Notes: generated by a model from the letters alone, not told the origin. Positions 3,584-16,777 are shown, counted from the first letter of the stretch. The stretch: DNA of 19,959 bases from a virus (IMGVR_UViG_2585427777_000028:1-19959); one strand, 5' to 3'. Numbers and translations are program-made.

Positions 3584-4462
3584 TCAGTAGTTATGAACTG
3601 AAGGAGGTAATTCTTTATTCTTAAGTCTCATCCATGCGGAAAGATTCGTTGGTCCGTCTGGCTCATTGATATCAACATCTCGTGTGTGGTTGATTAAAAC
3701 ATCTCTCGCCATATCGATAATACGGGAGAACTCATAACCGCAGTCATGACATCTGCCGGAATAGTTCGATTGAATTTGTTTTAGCGCCGGATACAGTTCG
3801 CGGAATAATGCCTGTGAGCGGTTGGCATAATCCCATAACCATACAAGGCTGTTTGCTTCTTTTGCAGAAAGCTCGTTGGTTTTCTTCTCTTGTTTGCCGA
3901 TGAACTCACCTTCAAGCACTACCCTGTGGATGTACTCTACAGCTTGCGGGATTTGTTCAATTGAAAGTTCATCAATGCTGTCAATACCAAAACGCTGATG
4001 AACCATATTGTATGCATCGTCATAGCGAAGTCCTTTCTTTCCTACCAGCATGTTTACTGCATCGCGTAGCGGTGTTCTTTCCTCAACAGTGGTTTTCTTT
4101 CCTTTAACATACTCGCCATGTTTGCGAATTGAAGGCAGAACTTCTGCTGTTACCCACTTGCGGAATTTGTGCGGGACTGAACCTTTATTGACTGCATCGC
4201 GGCAGCGCAGAACCAATGTATACATACCTGATTCGCTCACAATGCTTAGATTCTGCTCACCACCAAGGGTGTAACTTAAAGTTACTCCCTTTTCATCGTC
4301 ATCAAGTGCAGTAAGCGCCTTGCGTGAGTTAGTCAAAGCTAAAGCATCACAAACATCTTTAGCTACAAACCACGGCTCACCGCACTTGTTGATGACGCGG
4401 ATTTCACTGTCGCCGAATTTGAAGATGGTGAAATCGTTTTGTGCCTTTGCTATACTTTTCAT
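3584..4462 (-). CDS. ant: antirepressor Ant-like protein with BRO-N domain
   Basis: N-terminal [50 protein letters not shown] is a typical BRO-N motif. It lies downstream of arc on the same strand, as in P22 immI. Confidence 0.8.
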
Positions 4463-4524
4463 GTCAATATTTCCTAAGACGATTTGTTGATACCGAAGCC
4501 CTGACTGTTACCGCAGTTGGGGCT

Positions 4525-4728
4525 TCAACTTTCTGCTCTATCAGTTATATCTTTCCCTTCATATACTTCACCTATATTGCTAATGCTGGCAGAACATCCA
4601 AGATGCTTGTATCTTATGATGTCCAACACGCAGTCACTACACAGCATCCGACCTGTTTCTTTAGAGTAAATGTATGTTTGATCAGCGTCTGATTCGCTAA
4701 TGCCGCAGAAACAACATTCTTTACTCAT
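4525..4728 (-). CDS. small zinc-ribbon-like protein (CxxC...CxxC), unknown function
   Basis: 67 aa with Cys pairs (CCFCG ... CSDC). Sits between arc and ant; its start overlaps the arc stop. Confidence 0.5.
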   Translation of the reverse strand: MSKECCFCGISESDADQTYIYSKETGRMLCSDCVLDIIRYKHLGCSASISNIGEVYEGKDITDRAES

Positions 4729-11152: not shown

Positions 11153-11860
11153 ATGGTTCAGAATGAAAAAGTGCGCAAAGAATTCGCCCAGCGGCTAGCG
11201 CAAGCCTGTAAAGAAGCTGGTCTTGATGAACATGGTAGGGGGATGGCCATAGCCCGTGCCCTTTCTCTTTCGTCCAAAGGCGTTAGCAAATGGTTTAATG
11301 CTGAGTCTTTACCGCGTCAGGAAAAAATGAATGCGCTTGCGAAATTTCTAAACGTTGATGTTGTTTGGCTTCAGCACGGCACTTCGTTAAATGGAGCGAA
11401 TGATGAAGATACTCTTTCATTTGTTGGCAAATTAAAAAAAGGGTTAGTGCGCGTGGTTGGTGAGGCAATTCTTGGTGTTGATGGTGCCATCGAGATGACC
11501 GAAGAGCGCGATGGGTGGCTCAAAATTTATAGCGATGATCCAGATGCCTTTGGCCTTCGTGTGAAAGGAGACAGCATGTGGCCCAGAATAAAATCAGGAG
11601 AATATGTACTCATTGAGCCTAACACCAAAGTATTCCCGGGTGATGAGGTGTTTGTCAGAACCGTTGAAGGACACAACATGATCAAAGTTCTTGGCTATGA
11701 CAGAGACGGAGAATACCAATTTACAAGCATCAACCAGGACCACAGGCCAATAACGTTGCCTTATCATCAAGTAGCAAAGGTGGAGTATGTGGCTGGTATT
11801 CTGAAGCAATCTCGCCATCTGGATGACATCGAGGCAAGGGAGTGGCTGAAAAGTTCGTGA
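11153..11860 (+). CDS. cI: CI-type prophage repressor (N-terminal HTH, C-terminal S24 LexA-like peptidase domain)
   Basis: C-terminal region contains GDSMWP (S24 catalytic serine motif). N-terminal HTH-like region. Divergent from cro. Confidence 0.85.
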   Translation: MVQNEKVRKEFAQRLAQACKEAGLDEHGRGMAIARALSLSSKGVSKWFNAESLPRQEKMNALAKFLNVDVVWLQHGTSLNGANDEDTLSFVGKLKKGLVRVVGEAILGVDGAIEMTEERDGWLKIYSDDPDAFGLRVKGDSMWPRIKSGEYVLIEPNTKVFPGDEVFVRTVEGHNMIKVLGYDRDGEYQFTSINQDHRPITLPYHQVAKVEYVAGILKQSRHLDDIEAREWLKSS

Positions 11861-11996: not shown

Positions 11997-12284
11997 ATGA
12001 AGGTCTTAAACGTAGAGAAGCTTCACAGTTTTAGCCGGAAGCACAATCAGGCCAAGGGGGCTTTAGACTCTTGGTATGATGAAGTGATAAGAGAAAACTG
12101 GAAAACGACTCAAGACATACGGAATAGATTTAATTCTGCCGACTTCCTTCCTAACAACAGGGTAATTTTTAATATAAAAGGCAATAACTATCGGCTCGTT
12201 GTCCAAGTTGTTTACCAGGCAGGAATGGTCATAGTTGAAAGAGTTGGAACTCATGCAGAGTACGACAAGTGGAGGCTTAAATGA
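11997..12284 (+). CDS. higB: HigB-family toxin (RelE-fold mRNA interferase)
   Basis: NRVIFNIKGNNYRLVVQVVYQAGMVIVERVGTHAEYD parallels E. coli HigB/YgjN (HYVFNVGGNELRVVAMVFFESQKCYIREVMTHKEYD). The toxin is encoded first, as in higBA. Confidence 0.8.
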   Translation: MKVLNVEKLHSFSRKHNQAKGALDSWYDEVIRENWKTTQDIRNRFNSADFLPNNRVIFNIKGNNYRLVVQVVYQAGMVIVERVGTHAEYDKWRLK

Positions 12285-12937
12285 ATCGAACTAGCTGGCG
12301 CATCATTAAAAATAGTGAAGAGCATGCTGCAGCTATGGAAAGGCTCATTGAACTTGCGTCTAGTGATTTACAACCTGGAACTGAAGATTTTGATGAGTTT
12401 GAACTACTAGGCTTGCTTATCGAGCACTATGAGTCACGCGAGTTCCCTATGGACAAGCCAGATCCCATAGAAGCAATCAAGTTCCGTATGGATCAACAAG
12501 GCCTCTCTTATGCCGATATGAAACAATACATTGGCTCAGCATCTAAAGTATCTGAGGTCTTAAATCGTAAGCGTCCATTAAGTCTTTCAATGATCCGTAG
12601 ACTACATGACGGACTTGGAATTCCTGCAGATATCTTAATTCAAGATATGAGCGCAATTGAATGGAGCCTAGTTGACGCAGAGGAAGAAGAAACAGCCATG
12701 ACTAGCGTCATTGCTCGGTGTGAGTCAGCCGTCACATCACCTTCTGCTTATTTCGCTGAAAAGGCTACAGAATCTTACTTTTCAAAAATGTTGTTCAGCG
12801 CAGTAAGGGGTAATGGCAAATGCAAAGAAAAACGGAATGTTTTTTCTTTGATAAGTAACTTGTCATCAAGTTTCACAGCGGCTAGCAACCTGAATGACGA
12901 AATGACTTCTGACGGAAATTACTTATTATTACCATGA
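12281..12937 (+). CDS. higA: HigA-like antitoxin (HTH) with a ~90 aa C-terminal extension, candidate chaperone-addiction region
   Basis: HTH segment LSYADMKQYIGSASKVSEVLNRKRPLSLSMIRRLHDGLGIPADILI is typical of HigA. Start overlaps the higB stop. At 218 aa it is much longer than usual HigA; the tail is Ser-rich and low-complexity. Confidence 0.75.
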   Translation: MNRTSWRIIKNSEEHAAAMERLIELASSDLQPGTEDFDEFELLGLLIEHYESREFPMDKPDPIEAIKFRMDQQGLSYADMKQYIGSASKVSEVLNRKRPLSLSMIRRLHDGLGIPADILIQDMSAIEWSLVDAEEEETAMTSVIARCESAVTSPSAYFAEKATESYFSKMLFSAVRGNGKCKEKRNVFSLISNLSSSFTAASNLNDEMTSDGNYLLLP

Positions 12938-13338
12938 AAATTGAACTCATTAGCAAAAAAGTTGAACGCTTGGTTATGACACGGCTAGAAGGCGATTCAA
13001 CAGCAAAAAAAGCCATAAAAACAACCGTTAATCTAAATAATGAACTCTACACTAATGTGAAGGATTCAAAGCTATTTAGAGTGAGATATTTTGCCTCCGT
13101 AACTATTGAAGGCAGGCTTGAGATGGACATCACATACGACTTTGACTTCCGGTCAGAAGATGATTTTTCTCATGAAATGGCAAAATCATATGAGGTAAGG
13201 TCCATTGCTCCCAATATGGCATATCCCTATATAAAAACATATGCCGAGCAAATTATCCTCATGTCAAACCTTGGTAGGTTCACTCTGCCTTATTTTGATT
13301 TCTTGGCCAATCCCATGGAAACGAACAGTAATAAGTGA
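12934..13338 (+). CDS. SecB-like chaperone, proposed third component of a TAC module
   Basis: APNMAYPYIKTYAEQIILMSNLGRFTLPYFDFLAN parallels the E. coli SecB segment [36 protein letters not shown] (shared PN..(F/Y)PY.(R/K) and hydrophobic pattern). Start overlaps the higA stop (ATGA). Confidence 0.55.
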   Translation: MKIELISKKVERLVMTRLEGDSTAKKAIKTTVNLNNELYTNVKDSKLFRVRYFASVTIEGRLEMDITYDFDFRSEDDFSHEMAKSYEVRSIAPNMAYPYIKTYAEQIILMSNLGRFTLPYFDFLANPMETNSNK

Positions 13339-13344
13339 AATTCC

Positions 13345-13373
13345 CCCCCCGGCCTCAGCGCCGGGTTTTCTTT
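13345..13373 (+). terminator. rho-independent terminator ending the cI-higB-higA-chaperone transcript
   Basis: CCCGGC-CTCAGC-GCCGGG hairpin followed by TTTTCTTT, directly after the chaperone stop. Confidence 0.55.
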
Positions 13374-13548: not shown

Positions 13549-13588
13549 ACCAATAGTTCTTGATAATGTCGAACTATTGGTTCATTAT
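13549..13588 (+). promoter_or_regulatory. candidate PL/OL region
   Basis: ACCAATAGTT and its reverse complement AACTATTGGT flank TTGATA, 17 nt, CATTAT. The arms resemble the AACTnnnAGTT dyad in the cI-cro region. Confidence 0.3.
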
Positions 13589-13634: not shown

Positions 13635-13676
13635 GCTCTTTAACATTGATGGGATTGTCCCGCCGAAATGCGGGAA
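13635..13676 (+). promoter_or_regulatory. nutL-like site (boxA + boxB)
   Basis: GCTCTTTAACA (boxA-like), a 12-nt spacer, then hairpin TCCCGC-CGAAAT-GCGGGA. This is 19 of 20 identical to the nutR hairpin on the other strand. Confidence 0.55.
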
Positions 13677-13782: not shown

Positions 13783-14082
13783 ATGACAGTAGTCATTACA
13801 TATCTTGCTGACGATAACGCCAGAAATCGCCGCAGAGCACGCAGACAGGCTCAACGTGAACAGGCAATGCAAGAGCAGCGACTGGCGCGAAAAATTGCGC
13901 TAAAGCTCTCTGGTTGCGTCAGAGCAGACAAAGCAGCATCACTAGGAAGCCTTCGCTGCAAGAAGGCAGAAGAAGTTGAGCGTAAACAGAACCGTATTTA
14001 CTACCGCAAGCCACGCAGTGAAATGGGTGTGACTTGTGTTGGTCGCCAGAAAATGAAATTAGGCAGCAAACCACTTATTTGA
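13783..14082 (+). CDS. N: N-like transcription antiterminator
   Basis: Arginine-rich motif near the N-terminus (DNARNRRRARRQAQREQ). First gene downstream of nutL, transcribed away from cI. RBS GGAGG. Confidence 0.6.
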   Translation: MTVVITYLADDNARNRRRARRQAQREQAMQEQRLARKIALKLSGCVRADKAASLGSLRCKKAEEVERKQNRIYYRKPRSEMGVTCVGRQKMKLGSKPLI

Positions 14083-14090
14083 GGTGAGAT

Positions 14091-14561
14091 ATGACAAAAT
14101 CATGGAGCGTACCTTTTCCTGAATCAGAAACTGAACATGATGGAATGCCTGTTTTCTGGAGATTCCAGGCGACAGTTGAAGAAGATGGGATAAAAATATT
14201 CGCACTTCAATATATAGCTTTTCATCAGACAGAGCATTATGCATGGTTGGTTCCTGCGCATTGGATTGTTAATTTTAAACCAGCACCAAATCAGTGGTTA
14301 CAGGAATGGAAACAAAGGAGAAATAGATATGCAATTAAGAAAGTAGCAAAAAATGCAGAAAGATCTTTTGCATTCCCAACGAAGAAACTTGCCATTGAGA
14401 GTTTATTGCGCCGGAAGAAATACCATTTAATGAGAATCAAACAAGATTTGGCTGTTGTATCAACTCTTGTTGATGGGATGAAGAATATTGATACATCAAC
14501 ACCAGATATTGAATATAACTTTGGGCACAACCAAGAAACAGAAAATTGGGTATTTTATTAG
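14091..14561 (+). CDS. hypothetical protein, first gene after N in the leftward early operon
   Basis: 156 aa with RBS GAGGTGAG. No family recognised. Confidence 0.5.
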   Translation: MTKSWSVPFPESETEHDGMPVFWRFQATVEEDGIKIFALQYIAFHQTEHYAWLVPAHWIVNFKPAPNQWLQEWKQRRNRYAIKKVAKNAERSFAFPTKKLAIESLLRRKKYHLMRIKQDLAVVSTLVDGMKNIDTSTPDIEYNFGHNQETENWVFY

Positions 14562-14665
14562 TACGAGTAAGCACTGTGTATTCATTCCAACGAGTGAATA
14601 CACGGAGCAATGTCGCTCGTAACTAAACAGGAGCCGACTTGTTCTGATTATTGGAAATCTTCTTT

Positions 14666-14690
14666 GCCCTCCAGTGTGAGGGCCTTTTTA
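14666..14690 (+). terminator. rho-independent terminator (tL-like) upstream of cIII
   Basis: GCCCTC-CAGTGT-GAGGGC followed by CTTTTTAT. Preceded at about 14574-14605 by a separate 9-bp-stem hairpin (GTGTATTCA ... TGAATACAC). Confidence 0.5.
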
Positions 14691-14752
14691 TATGCATAAC
14701 AATAACGCTTCACTCGAGGCGTTTTTCGTTATGTATAAATAAGGAGCACACC

Positions 14753-14893
14753 ATGCAATATGCCATTGCAGGGTGGCCTGTTGCTGGCTGCCCTTCCGAA
14801 TCTTTACTTGAACGAATCACCCGTAAATTACGTGACGGATGGAAACGACTCATCGACGTACTTAATCAGCCAGGAGTTCCCAAAAATGGATAA
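14753..14893 (+). CDS. cIII: CIII-like protein (protects CII from FtsH)
   Basis: MQYAIAGWPVAGCPSESLLERITRKLRDGWKRLIDVLNQPGVPKNG is near-identical to my recollection of lambda CIII, but shorter at the C-terminus. RBS AAGGAG. Confidence 0.8.
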   Translation: MQYAIAGWPVAGCPSESLLERITRKLRDGWKRLIDVLNQPGVPKNG

Positions 14894-14999
14894 AACACTT
14901 ATGGCTATCCAGACTAAATTCACTATCGCCGCTTTTATTGGCGATGAAAAGATGTTTCGTGAGGCCGTCGAAGCCTACAGAAAATGGAGGTCAAAATGA
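14886..14999 (+). CDS. kil: Kil-like protein (host cell-division inhibitor)
   Basis: MDKTLMAIQTKFTIAAFIGDEKMFREAVEAYRKW matches my recollection of the lambda Kil N-terminus. Overlaps the cIII stop. Confidence 0.65.
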   Translation: MDKTLMAIQTKFTIAAFIGDEKMFREAVEAYRKWRSK

Positions 15000-15192: not shown

Positions 15193-15873
15193 ATGGGAAC
15201 TGCGACATTAATACTCGGTGAGTCTGGCACCGGAAAATCAACCAGCATGAGAAATATCAATCCAGAGGAAGCAATACTTATAAAACCAATAGGCAAGCCG
15301 CTACCATTTAAATCAAAAGACTGGCTTGCATGGGATGCCAGAGCAAAAAAAGGAACCGTAGTTACCACTGACAAATGGGACGTAATAGTTGCTGCAATTA
15401 AGCGTGCTCACGAATACGGAAAAAGAATCGTTATTGTTGATGACTTCCAGTATGTGATGAGCAATGAGTTTATGCGCCGCTCAGAAGAAAAATCGTTTGA
15501 TAAATTTACTGAGATAGGCCGCCACGCATGGGAGGTGATTAAGGCTGCACAGGATGCACCTGATGACCTGAGAGTCTATTTTCTTGCACATACCGAAGAA
15601 ACCCCTATGGGGCGCGTGAAAATGAAAACTATCGGCAAAATGCTGGACGAGAAAATCACTGTCGAAGGCATGTTTACTATAGTTCTTCGCACTCTTACCC
15701 GCGATGACCAGTTCTTTTTCACCACGAAAAACAACGGTGCAGACACTGTCAAATCCCCAATGGGAATGTTTGATTCCAATGAGATTGATAACGATCTCTC
15801 TTTCGTCGATGCCACTGTTTGTGATTACTACGGCATCAATAATGTTCATCAAATTAAGGAAAGCGCCGCATGA
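15193..15873 (+). CDS. Sak4-like RecA-fold ATPase (phage recombination protein)
   Basis: Walker A GESGTGKST and Walker B-like IVIVDD. About 226 aa, sitting where lambdoid phages carry recombination genes. Confidence 0.55.
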   Translation: MGTATLILGESGTGKSTSMRNINPEEAILIKPIGKPLPFKSKDWLAWDARAKKGTVVTTDKWDVIVAAIKRAHEYGKRIVIVDDFQYVMSNEFMRRSEEKSFDKFTEIGRHAWEVIKAAQDAPDDLRVYFLAHTEETPMGRVKMKTIGKMLDEKITVEGMFTIVLRTLTRDDQFFFTTKNNGADTVKSPMGMFDSNEIDNDLSFVDATVCDYYGINNVHQIKESAA

Positions 15874-16457
15874 GCAACGTAATTTTTACTTATAACGAAG
15901 AAGCAGCACTGACCGCAGGGCAAGGTGGTTTTATTAACGAAACTGGCGCTCATATCATTACCATTACTGAAGCAGAACTAAAGCAATCAGAAAAAGGAGC
16001 CAAATTTATTGAGTTTTCTGGCGAATCCGACGACGGACGTAAAATCCAATATCTTAGCGTCTGTGTTCAGAAAAATGACGGAACGGAAAACAAATTTGGC
16101 GCAAATGTCGTTCACGCCATGATGGGGTGTGCCGGGATTGGACAATTAACGCAACATATGGTTTCCGCCAGTAAATTTGTTGCTCCTGAGTTTCATGGAA
16201 AGAAAATCGGGTTAGTGCTCCAGAAAGTATTAACCACAAACAAAAAGACTGGCGCAGACAGCTACCAGATGGAAATACGCATCCCGTTTATTGCACAAAC
16301 AGGTCAAACCCTTAAAGAAAAGGCGGAAGGCAAGCAACCAGAAACTATCGCCAACATGGTTGCCAGCCTCAAAGATAAAGACAATCGCTCTAAAAACGTA
16401 AGCCAGAATCATGCAGATGATTATGGTTACAACCAGAACGATTACCCTCCTTTCTGA
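15870..16457 (+). CDS. hypothetical protein, possible ssDNA-binding partner of the Sak4-like ATPase
   Basis: Translationally coupled to the ATPase gene (ATGA). C-terminal ...DYPPF is reminiscent of the SSB C-terminal tip (DDDIPF). No canonical OB-fold motif recognised. Confidence 0.35.
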   Translation: MSNVIFTYNEEAALTAGQGGFINETGAHIITITEAELKQSEKGAKFIEFSGESDDGRKIQYLSVCVQKNDGTENKFGANVVHAMMGCAGIGQLTQHMVSASKFVAPEFHGKKIGLVLQKVLTTNKKTGADSYQMEIRIPFIAQTGQTLKEKAEGKQPETIANMVASLKDKDNRSKNVSQNHADDYGYNQNDYPPF

Positions 16458-16480
16458 TTATTGAAAATAAGTCTCCCATT

Positions 16481-16777
16481 ATGCCAGCGCCTCTGTATGG
16501 TGCGGATGACCCGCGCAATTGCTCCGGTAGCTCCAAGGCGGAGGTGCTGGAAAATATCAAAAACAATTTCGACGCGTTTCTTGCTCTGACACCAGAAACA
16601 AAAGCAGAACGGATGTACCGACGCGATATACAACTCGCGCTAAAACAGGAGAAGGACCGAACAAACGAAACAGCAATGAGACCGTTGCGAAAAGCGACAA
16701 TAGACAAATTCCCTGAATATATCGACCCGCGCCTGCGTAATTACCGCTCTCGTTATGGCGCTATCAGTAATGACTGA
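16481..16777 (+). CDS. hypothetical protein
   Basis: 98 aa ORF in the same orientation as the early-left operon. Weak RBS; no family recognised. Confidence 0.35.

Follow-up and report, generated by a model that had tools for sequence, protein, structure and literature searches.

A covarying hairpin at the 5′ edge of a predicted PreS small RNA, and a catalogued but uncharacterized gene, in the early-left region of a lambdoid phage

The window, a 19,959-nucleotide (nt) stretch of viral DNA (IMGVR_UViG_2585427777_000028), very probably covers the promoter-proximal part of a lambdoid phage's leftward early (pL) operon. The RNA elements that follow the first gene after N belong to an already known system: the small RNA (sRNA) PreS with its terminator tL2a, a second terminator that is presumably tL2b, and the cIII thermosensor. 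Two findings are new, namely a hairpin at the 5′ edge of PreS whose pairing is supported by covariation, and a confident predicted fold, with no solved relative, for the superfamily of HK97 gp45, to which the 156-amino-acid (aa) product of that first gene belongs. The gene itself is not novel: it is already catalogued as HK97 gp45 and 933W ST933Wp19, and its function is uncharacterized.

On the + strand of the window, the elements follow one another in the order pL, nutL, N, the 156-aa gene, the hairpin, PreS/tL2a, the second terminator, the cIII thermosensor and cIII, with kil downstream of cIII. A consensus scan placed a pL-like promoter (TTGATA-17-CATTAT, 9 of 12 matches) at 13560–13588, between the cI-side terminator (13348–13365) and N, and from this position we infer that it is pL. 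A putative nutL (13635–13674) was identified by eye and consists of a boxA-like GCTCTTTAAC at 13635–13644 and a boxB-like hairpin, CCCGC-CGAAAT-GCGGG, at 13659–13674. The antiterminator N (99 aa, 13783–14082) matches phrog_271, 'anti-termination protein N-like', with an E-value of 4.8e-37, and Pfam N_peptide with an E-value of 8e-4, which is below the gathering score. The 156-aa open reading frame (ORF; 14091–14561, ATG start) begins 8 nt past the N stop codon, which its Shine–Dalgarno sequence, GAGGTGA, overlaps. The hairpin (14574–14605), the predicted PreS homologue (14605–14690, with its 3′ end near 14690) and cIII (46 aa, 14753–14893; Pfam Lambda_CIII, E = 3.1e-30) lie downstream. The sequence-only reading of this DNA had missed two further elements in front of cIII: a second terminator-like site (14704–14728, with its stem at 14704–14723), and the cIII mRNA thermoregulator at 14740–14798, which matches Rfam RF01804 (Lambda_thermo) with 88.5 bits against a gathering score of 50 (E = 9.4e-21).

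A comparison with lambda places the hairpin and the first terminator in a known spacer. Positions 14571–14693 align with lambda 34045–33923, between ral and ea10, at 97.6% identity, and positions 14694–14988 align with lambda 33522–33228, the region just upstream of cIII and onward, at 95.3% identity. The ea10 gene is missing here although the flanks are lambda-like, and the junction (14693/14694) lies directly past the U tract of the terminator. The gene for LPR1, an Hfq-bound sRNA since renamed PreS, lies in this spacer in lambda; the RNA is seen at about 88 nt and, more strongly, as a processed species of about 68 nt, and the terminator tL2a forms its 3′ end (bioRxiv 10.1101/2024.10.31.621285). 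PreS production is limited to the lytic cycle; the sRNA pairs upstream of the dnaN start codon, exposes the ribosome-binding site and raises β-clamp synthesis, and it also represses alaS and assists the replication of phage DNA (bioRxiv 10.1101/2024.10.31.621285). Its deletion lowers phage yield two- to four-fold and reduces phage DNA, all of these functions having been tested solely in lambda infection of K-12 and described in a preprint (bioRxiv 10.1101/2024.10.31.621285), the findings of which are restated in a 2025 review (PMC12197685).

We rebuilt the lambda PreS sequence from the authors' primers P1103 and P1104; it begins with GAGCAATGTCGC and ends with GAGGGCGATTTTTTA. Positions 14605–14683 of the window are identical to it, through the terminator stem and with the seed included. 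The seed region corresponds to about 14640–14656, the processed 68-nt species would have its 5′ end near 14623, and the bases altered in the lambda M1 and M2 mutants (M1: CTG, 14644–14646), as well as the deleted-seed bases, are all present here. The tail differs, being CCUUUUUAU here and CGAUUUUUUA in lambda, and has five U rather than six because the junction directly follows the U tract. At least 18 IMG/VR loci carry precisely the same allele as the window. On this sequence identity, we assign 14605 to about 14690 to a PreS homologue and 14666–14689 to tL2a, an assignment that, taken together with the operon anatomy, is very probably correct, and the activities of lambda PreS may carry over to the present phage. 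The two loci share the place in the pL operon, the GC-rich stem with its U tail and the hairpin immediately upstream. However, lambda has ral upstream and ea10 downstream of PreS, whereas here the 156-aa ORF stands upstream and ea10 is missing. At the gathering threshold, Rfam returned no sRNA family (such as AgvB or AsxR) for 14560–14740, and PreS is evidently absent from Rfam 15. HnrS (EcOnc10-12) was considered as a candidate and set aside, as it is a separate sRNA from the late region.

The sequence-only reading had described the 156-aa gene together with the hairpin and the terminator that follow it. Since the spacer that holds them is the lambda ral–ea10 spacer, they are not features of that gene, and the 104-nt spacer 3′ of the ORF occurs in 410 phage records, far above the number that carry the ORF. 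The same reading had proposed a processing site or small regulatory RNA at the hairpin. A small RNA is indeed predicted here, but it is PreS, which runs from the hairpin to the end of the terminator, and not the hairpin itself.

The hairpin contains a perfect 9-base-pair (bp) DNA stem, GTGTATTCA/TGAATACAC, as the sequence-only reading had noticed. In the + strand RNA, G·U pairs extend the stem to 14 bp (14574–14587 with 14592–14605) around a CAAC loop. Within its 66-nt context it folds at −28.4 kcal/mol, compared with −12.5 ± 2.6 kcal/mol for dinucleotide shuffles (z = −6.1; 0 of 200 as good), whereas the − strand of the same context folds less well (z = −3.4). The element is not a terminator, as it has no U run. 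Its last paired base, G14605, is nucleotide +1 of PreS. The PreS 5′ end used here is the cloned end and not a mapped one, and the abutment may thus partly reflect the authors' choice of boundary; the homology breakpoint with P22-type phages coincides with this cloned end at the same base.

Comparison across phages revealed that the position of the hairpin is retained while its sequence is exchanged. Homology to mEp043 (100%) and to P22, epsilon34 and SE1 (80–85%) starts exactly at 14605, and in mEp043 and the P22-like phages a different hairpin occupies the place, ending one base before the start of PreS. Among 311 PreS loci in IMG/VR and phage records, 309 have a hairpin that ends at the PreS 5′ position. 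The stems fall into four unrelated sequence types, which amount to only about three or four independent events: a lambda type (CUGUGUAUUCAUUC/GAGUGAAUACACGG), a P22/mEp043 type (UAUAGCAGAUU/AGUCUGCUAUG), an epsilon34 type (UAAUGACCAUU/AGUGGUCAUUG) and a fourth type (UAAUGCGGAUUC/GAUUCCGCAUUG). An apical AUU/AGU is common to three of them and may reflect common ancestry. In an alignment of 15 sequences (A3), 94.6% of the cells are paired, compared with 26–51% when the partners are slid by 1–3 columns, and both partners are altered in 8 of the 14 pairs. None of 500 shuffles (0.171 ± 0.029) reached the covariation score of 0.607. A clean double substitution, GCAGA/TCTGC to GCTGA/TCAGC, was found within the P22 type. 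A scan of genome contigs for the non-lambda hairpin types gave 0 matches.

The hairpin edges are also breakpoints of homology, at 14571 against lambda and at 14605 against the P22-type phages, and lambdoid mosaics typically have short conserved sequences at their module boundaries. The hairpin could accordingly be a mere DNA palindrome at a recombination boundary between mosaic modules, with no function as RNA. We consider this improbable: the stems have been replaced wholesale, yet their pairing is kept, with one double substitution confined to a single pair; the U·G wobbles, which are conserved, can pair in RNA of the + strand alone, which folds better than the − strand; and the position relative to PreS is fixed to the nucleotide in nearly all of the loci. 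Because pairing is maintained, the paired columns covary and the wobbles fit the + strand only, the hairpin is, as judged from comparative sequence evidence, an RNA structure under selection.

The hairpin most likely fixes, marks or insulates the 5′ boundary of PreS, although we regard this reading as evenly balanced between right and wrong. It would mark the site at which the mRNA is cleaved to release PreS; left behind, it may protect the 3′ end of the upstream mRNA; and it may insulate the folding of PreS from the variable gene upstream. A boundary role would suit an sRNA that sits at a mosaic junction behind changing genes, which include ral, orf87, mEp043 gp45 and the 156-aa ORF. Working analogies for the hairpin are the RNase III hairpins of the T7 early mRNA (R1.1) and Hfq-binding sRNAs derived from 3′ untranslated regions, such as CpxQ and SroC: an sRNA shares the terminator of the mRNA in front of it and is released by processing, and a stem-loop at the cut would be retained by the upstream RNA at its 3′ end. 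The PreS paper makes no mention of RNase E or RNase III, and the full PreS deletion made in lambda leaves the hairpin in place (bioRxiv 10.1101/2024.10.31.621285). The sequence at the junction of hairpin and PreS is unlike the RNase E motif. Compared with a classical RNase III site of about 20 bp (two helical turns), the conserved stem is short, at 11–14 bp. The minimum-free-energy fold of 14556–14752 does contain an outer helix (14562–14568 with 14616–14622) that, together with the inner stem, gives about 22 bp, and on this basis the two helices might serve as an RNase III target through which the stability of the upstream gene is set, in a lambda sib-like retroregulation. However, this extension is not conserved: the 5′ strand of the outer helix reads TACGAA in the majority of sequences and TACAAA or TATGAA in others, with no compensation, and lambda has unrelated sequence at this place. 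The sib-like model was rejected for this lack of conservation, and we regard it as extremely improbable.

The arrangement of terminators suggests where PreS stands in the transcription programme. The first terminator, GCCCTC-CAGTGT-GAGGGC at 14666–14683 followed by C-TTTTT, had been correctly recognized as an intrinsic terminator before cIII in the sequence-only reading. Between 13300 and 15300, the + strand has just two terminator-like sites downstream of pL, this one and that at 14704, which has an 8-pair stem (14704–14723) followed by TTTTCGTT. The region holds four terminator-like sites, compared with 2.5 ± 1.9 in shuffles, a count that alone is not significant, and the call at 14666 is supported by its identity to lambda tL2a, the PreS terminator. 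The second site, 14704–14728, presumably corresponds to tL2b (Luk and Szybalski, 1983). Thus, as in the lambda tL2 cluster, two intrinsic terminators precede cIII at homologous positions; in lambda they are separated by ea10, which is missing here.

The scan found no terminator-like site between pL and 14666, including the interval between N and the 156-aa ORF, and the first, N-independent transcript should therefore span N, the 156-aa gene and PreS. This transcript would carry PreS as its 3′ end, and N-modified polymerase would pass both terminators into cIII. For the lambda tL2 cluster, N readthrough has been established. Lambda has tL1 directly behind N, and PreS there should therefore depend on N; unlike its lambda counterpart, PreS in the present phage appears to be N-independent. 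Rho-dependent termination between pL and 14666 is possible. The sequence-only reading had proposed that the terminator gates expression of the genes beyond it. It does precede cIII, but it is also the predicted Hfq-binding 3′ end of PreS and not merely a gate.

Conservation and purifying selection identify the 156-aa ORF as a real gene, as the sequence-only reading had called it: where synonymous sites are measurable, dN/dS is 0.17 and 0.04, synonymous sites being saturated in most comparisons. The product matches phrog_1636 ('unknown function') over residues 1–156 of 156 with an E-value of 2.7e-112. It is identical in amino-acid sequence to 933W ST933Wp19, phi24B vb_24B_11c, BP-4795 ORF18 and Min27 ORF20, and 99.4% identical to HK97 gp45 and to the copy in H-19B. 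The gene was found in 83 phage records and, by megablast, in 598 of 5,426 complete Escherichia coli genomes (11%), in which it is always annotated as 'hypothetical protein'. Homologues of 55–85% identity occur in Pectobacterium, Brenneria, Cronobacter, Rosenbergiella and metagenomes. Scanning the protein against Pfam, NCBIfam and PADLOC yielded no meaningful match, the sole PADLOC match being Cas1_II (E = 0.018, 12 bits), which we judged to be due to chance. The earlier statement that the ORF matches no recognized family holds in this respect, with the qualification that it has a PHROG of its own, phrog_1636. A literature search under HK97 gp45, NP_049479, ST933Wp19, AAF31125, vb_24B_11c, ADN68407, PBV4795_ORF18 and phrog_1636 returned nothing relevant.

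The genomic contexts are consistent with an early-operon gene. It is the first gene after N in five of eight inspected phage contexts (the window, L002, L007, L008 and L009) and the first annotated coding sequence past N in 933W, HK97, phi24B and BP-4795, a position held regardless of the N allele. In phi367 the homologue follows ral, and in Pectobacterium and Brenneria prophages it immediately precedes xis–int. In lambdoid contexts it is always in the sense orientation to pL, within the early-left operon; the metagenomic contig L006 is an exception, in which the homologue heads an operon in non-lambdoid surroundings. A promoter scan found no + strand site for the 156-aa ORF or for PreS, and a weak − strand match at 14580–14552 is within chance expectation.

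The gene moves together with about 60 nt of upstream sequence. HK97, 933W, phi24B and BP-4795 share with the window both the downstream neighbours and this leader of about 60 nt. However, N in the 933W/HK97-type phages is a 127-aa protein of the H-19B type, whereas in the window it is a different, 99-aa protein. Here, the travelling upstream bases encode the last 18 codons of the 99-aa N, whereas in the 933W/HK97-type phages they are a 58-nt non-coding spacer between N and the ORF, with the stop codon of the other N allele at the junction. In a few phages, a terminator-like GGCCGCATAGTCGGCC with a T run lies directly after or before the ORF instead. Mosaicism also extends into PreS itself, as the Lederbergvirus 611R6 and five contigs carry a chimeric PreS whose 5′ part and seed are of the lambda type and whose terminator is of the P22 type.

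The profile and structure searches that the sequence-only reading had recommended were carried out. An exhaustive profile search (E ≤ 1e-3) delineated a superfamily of 87 representative clusters of 130–165 aa, with members in lambdoid, N4-like and other phages. An AlphaFold2 model built from 72 superfamily sequences (alignment A2) was confident (pLDDT 95.6, pTM 0.82) and superseded an earlier, poor model from 20 close sequences (pLDDT 59.5). In the model, three long antiparallel strands (residues 19–30, 33–46 and 50–55) are accompanied by two short helices, a short strand (residues 83–86), a 33-residue helix (residues 98–130) and an ordered C-terminal tail. Foldseek found no match to this model in the PDB (best E = 0.85), and sequence-profile searches of the PDB with alignments A1 and A2 returned nothing below an E-value of 0.5 (best 0.55). 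By contrast with the PDB, the BFVD gave 11 Foldseek matches below 1e-3, all of them uncharacterized phage proteins, including those of Erwinia phiEa2809, Achromobacter phiAxp-3, Delftia RG-2014, Sinorhizobium ort11, and Tenacibaculum and Cellulophaga phages. When the 72 aligned members were each scanned against Pfam and PHROG, the only matches were PHROGs of unknown function.

The charge of the protein is distributed in three parts, with isoelectric points of 5.0 (residues 1–60), 11.1 (residues 61–125) and 4.1 (residues 126–156). Ten columns of the superfamily alignment are at least 60% Lys or Arg, with K87 being 97% conserved; conservation extends to A101, G33, T47 and an acidic side chain at position 46. 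The alignment contains no conserved set of catalytic-looking residues. The protein would accordingly consist of an acidic three-stranded β-domain, a strongly basic middle part ending in the 33-residue helix, and an acidic tail. The motif RFAFxTKEEA prompted a comparison with the AP2 or integrase-arm DNA-binding domain, which was rejected: alignment A2 against the AtERF1 AP2 domain aligned the expected segment with an hhalign probability of 0.6%, Pfam gave no AP2 match, and no such fold was among the Foldseek results. We infer that the 156-aa protein, whose superfamily is confined to phages, is a genuine accessory protein of the immediate-early class, and we predict it to be non-enzymatic. By the generic reasoning that a basic patch tends to bind nucleic acid, the Lys/Arg patch may contact nucleic acid or, alternatively, an acidic host or defence protein, in the manner of a host-takeover or counter-defence factor; we advance this proposal tentatively, as the balance lies somewhat against it.

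That the protein acts specifically against restriction or other host defences was the suggestion of the sequence-only reading; on this view it would be made first to disarm host immunity. The gene fills the sieB–orf28–ral slot of lambda, between N and the PreS hairpin; its homologue stands directly behind ral in phi367; it is predicted to lie on the N-independent first transcript; and it shifts, as a mosaic cassette, from one N allele to another, unrelated one. Relatives are found in lytic phages too, and one lies two genes downstream of a DNA methyltransferase in a 74.7-kb phage contig. However, the early-left position also holds other functions (kil, cIII, gam and recombination), and the occupants of the lambda slot, ral and sieB, have neither sequence nor fold similarity to the 156-aa protein, although ral co-occurs with the gene in phi367. 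Neither Ral nor ArdA/Ocr nor ArdB/KlcA resembled it in sequence or fold, at the Pfam threshold, in Foldseek against the PDB or in PDB profile searches, and it matches no PADLOC or Pfam family. The protein is basic and not an acidic DNA mimic, and the gene is absent from the leading regions of conjugative plasmids, the only 'plasmids' that carry it being 11 non-mobilizable, phage-like ones. We therefore hold a dedicated anti-defence role to be doubtful.

The lambda sieB position would also fit a moron, that is, a sieB-like exclusion or defence gene expressed from the prophage by its own promoter; the G+C content of the gene (about 35–40%, against about 51–54% for N) and the co-travel of about 60 nt of upstream sequence point the same way. 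However, the interval between pL and the ORF holds no + strand promoter-like site, the Shine–Dalgarno sequence overlaps the N stop codon, and in other genera the gene precedes xis–int in the same operon. The protein has no PADLOC match, and neither SieB nor any other family passes the Pfam threshold. A moron is thus highly unlikely, and the reading that we prefer is that of an immediate-early accessory gene of the pL operon. A bolder, joint proposition, in which the superfamily is a new class of immediate-early effector and the hairpin is a structure-specified signal that releases PreS from the N mRNA, is conceivable, but we think it rather unlikely to be right in both parts.

Collectively, these findings do not overturn current understanding; they mainly reassign a 'hairpin plus terminator' to a known element. 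The conserved hairpin provides a testable handle on the excision of PreS from the early mRNA. Since an intact PreS is present here as well as in HK97- and 933W-type phages, the increase that it brings to the host replication clamp in lambda infection probably occurs in Shiga-toxin phages too. The 156-aa gene is carried by clinically important phages of this group, including 933W, phi24B, BP-4795, and Stx1a and Stx2a phages, and its product is predicted to be among the earliest proteins made after induction; with a confident model and a superfamily at hand, it is a tractable target. The importance of these observations would rise if the 156-aa protein proved to be a new kind of early effector.

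The Hfq-dependent sRNA PreS, whose homologue lies downstream of the 156-aa gene, occurs in several forms among the related phages. Relative to lambda, the window carries a recombination or deletion junction at 14693/14694, where lambda positions 33923 and 33522 are joined. The junction is placed directly 3′ of the PreS U tract, with the loss of ea10/ssb and a U tail of five rather than six residues. In P22-like Salmonella phages, orf87/gp40 and gene 17/c3 flank a divergent, ~100-nt PreS-like RNA (716–850 in P22, X15637, and about 1470–1603 in the epsilon34 locus), in which two seed positions are changed (CUCGUUCUGGUUAUUGG) and the terminator also differs; conservation of PreS has been reported at at least 92% identity only (10.1101/2024.10.31.621285). 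Phage vB_EcoP-611R6 (3805–3910) and five IMG/VR loci contain a chimeric PreS, consisting of a lambda-type 5′ half with the seed and a P22-type 3′ half with the terminator, joined at the position corresponding to window 14665. Recombination therefore took place within the sRNA.

At 4464–4530 (+), an Rfam search identified sar RNA (RF00262; score 74.5 bits, gathering threshold 43), the antisense RNA that controls the antirepressor region of P22 immI; thus, a P22-type immI and a lambda/HK97-type early-left region are combined in one phage. The recombination module 3′ of kil (15193–16777, +) is not Red-type, and comprises an AAA_24 (Sak4-like) ATPase (15193–15873, +), a 195-aa ORF without a family (15870–16457, +) and a P22-type Abc2 anti-RecBCD protein (16481–16777, +; E 1.5e-35). 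Three plus-strand ORFs are found in 11997–13365, between the cI-like repressor (11153–11860) and a strong terminator upstream of pL (13348–13365), in the slot that is occupied by rexAB in lambda. These ORFs, of 95 aa (11997–12284, +), 218 aa (12281–12937, +; weak HTH_3 match) and 134 aa (12934–13338, +; without a family), overlap their neighbours by 4 nt and are candidates for lysogen-expressed toxin–antitoxin or defence cargo.

A conserved boundary element resembling a terminator, GGCCGCATA(G/A)(T/G)CGGCC followed by a T run, borders the 156-aa gene in some phages and is located immediately 3′ of the stop codon or immediately upstream of the gene. It is present in loci L007 (4472–4495) and L009 (4481–4505) and in several IMG/VR loci; lambda has a degenerate copy after ral. 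P0046, a distant relative within the 156-aa family, sits among a run of small unknown ORFs on a 74.7-kb viral contig (region 2441–3956), two genes 3′ of a DNA methyltransferase. Immediately upstream of the 156-aa gene (14029–14090), the last 18 codons of the window N allele are homologous to the spacer that separates N from this gene in 933W/HK97-type phages, which have a different N allele and in which the homologous bases form a 58-nt spacer (2443–2500 in the 933W locus). Because this spacer is homologous to N codons, the sequence comparison suggests that the cassette with the 156-aa gene originally spread jointly with the window-type N.
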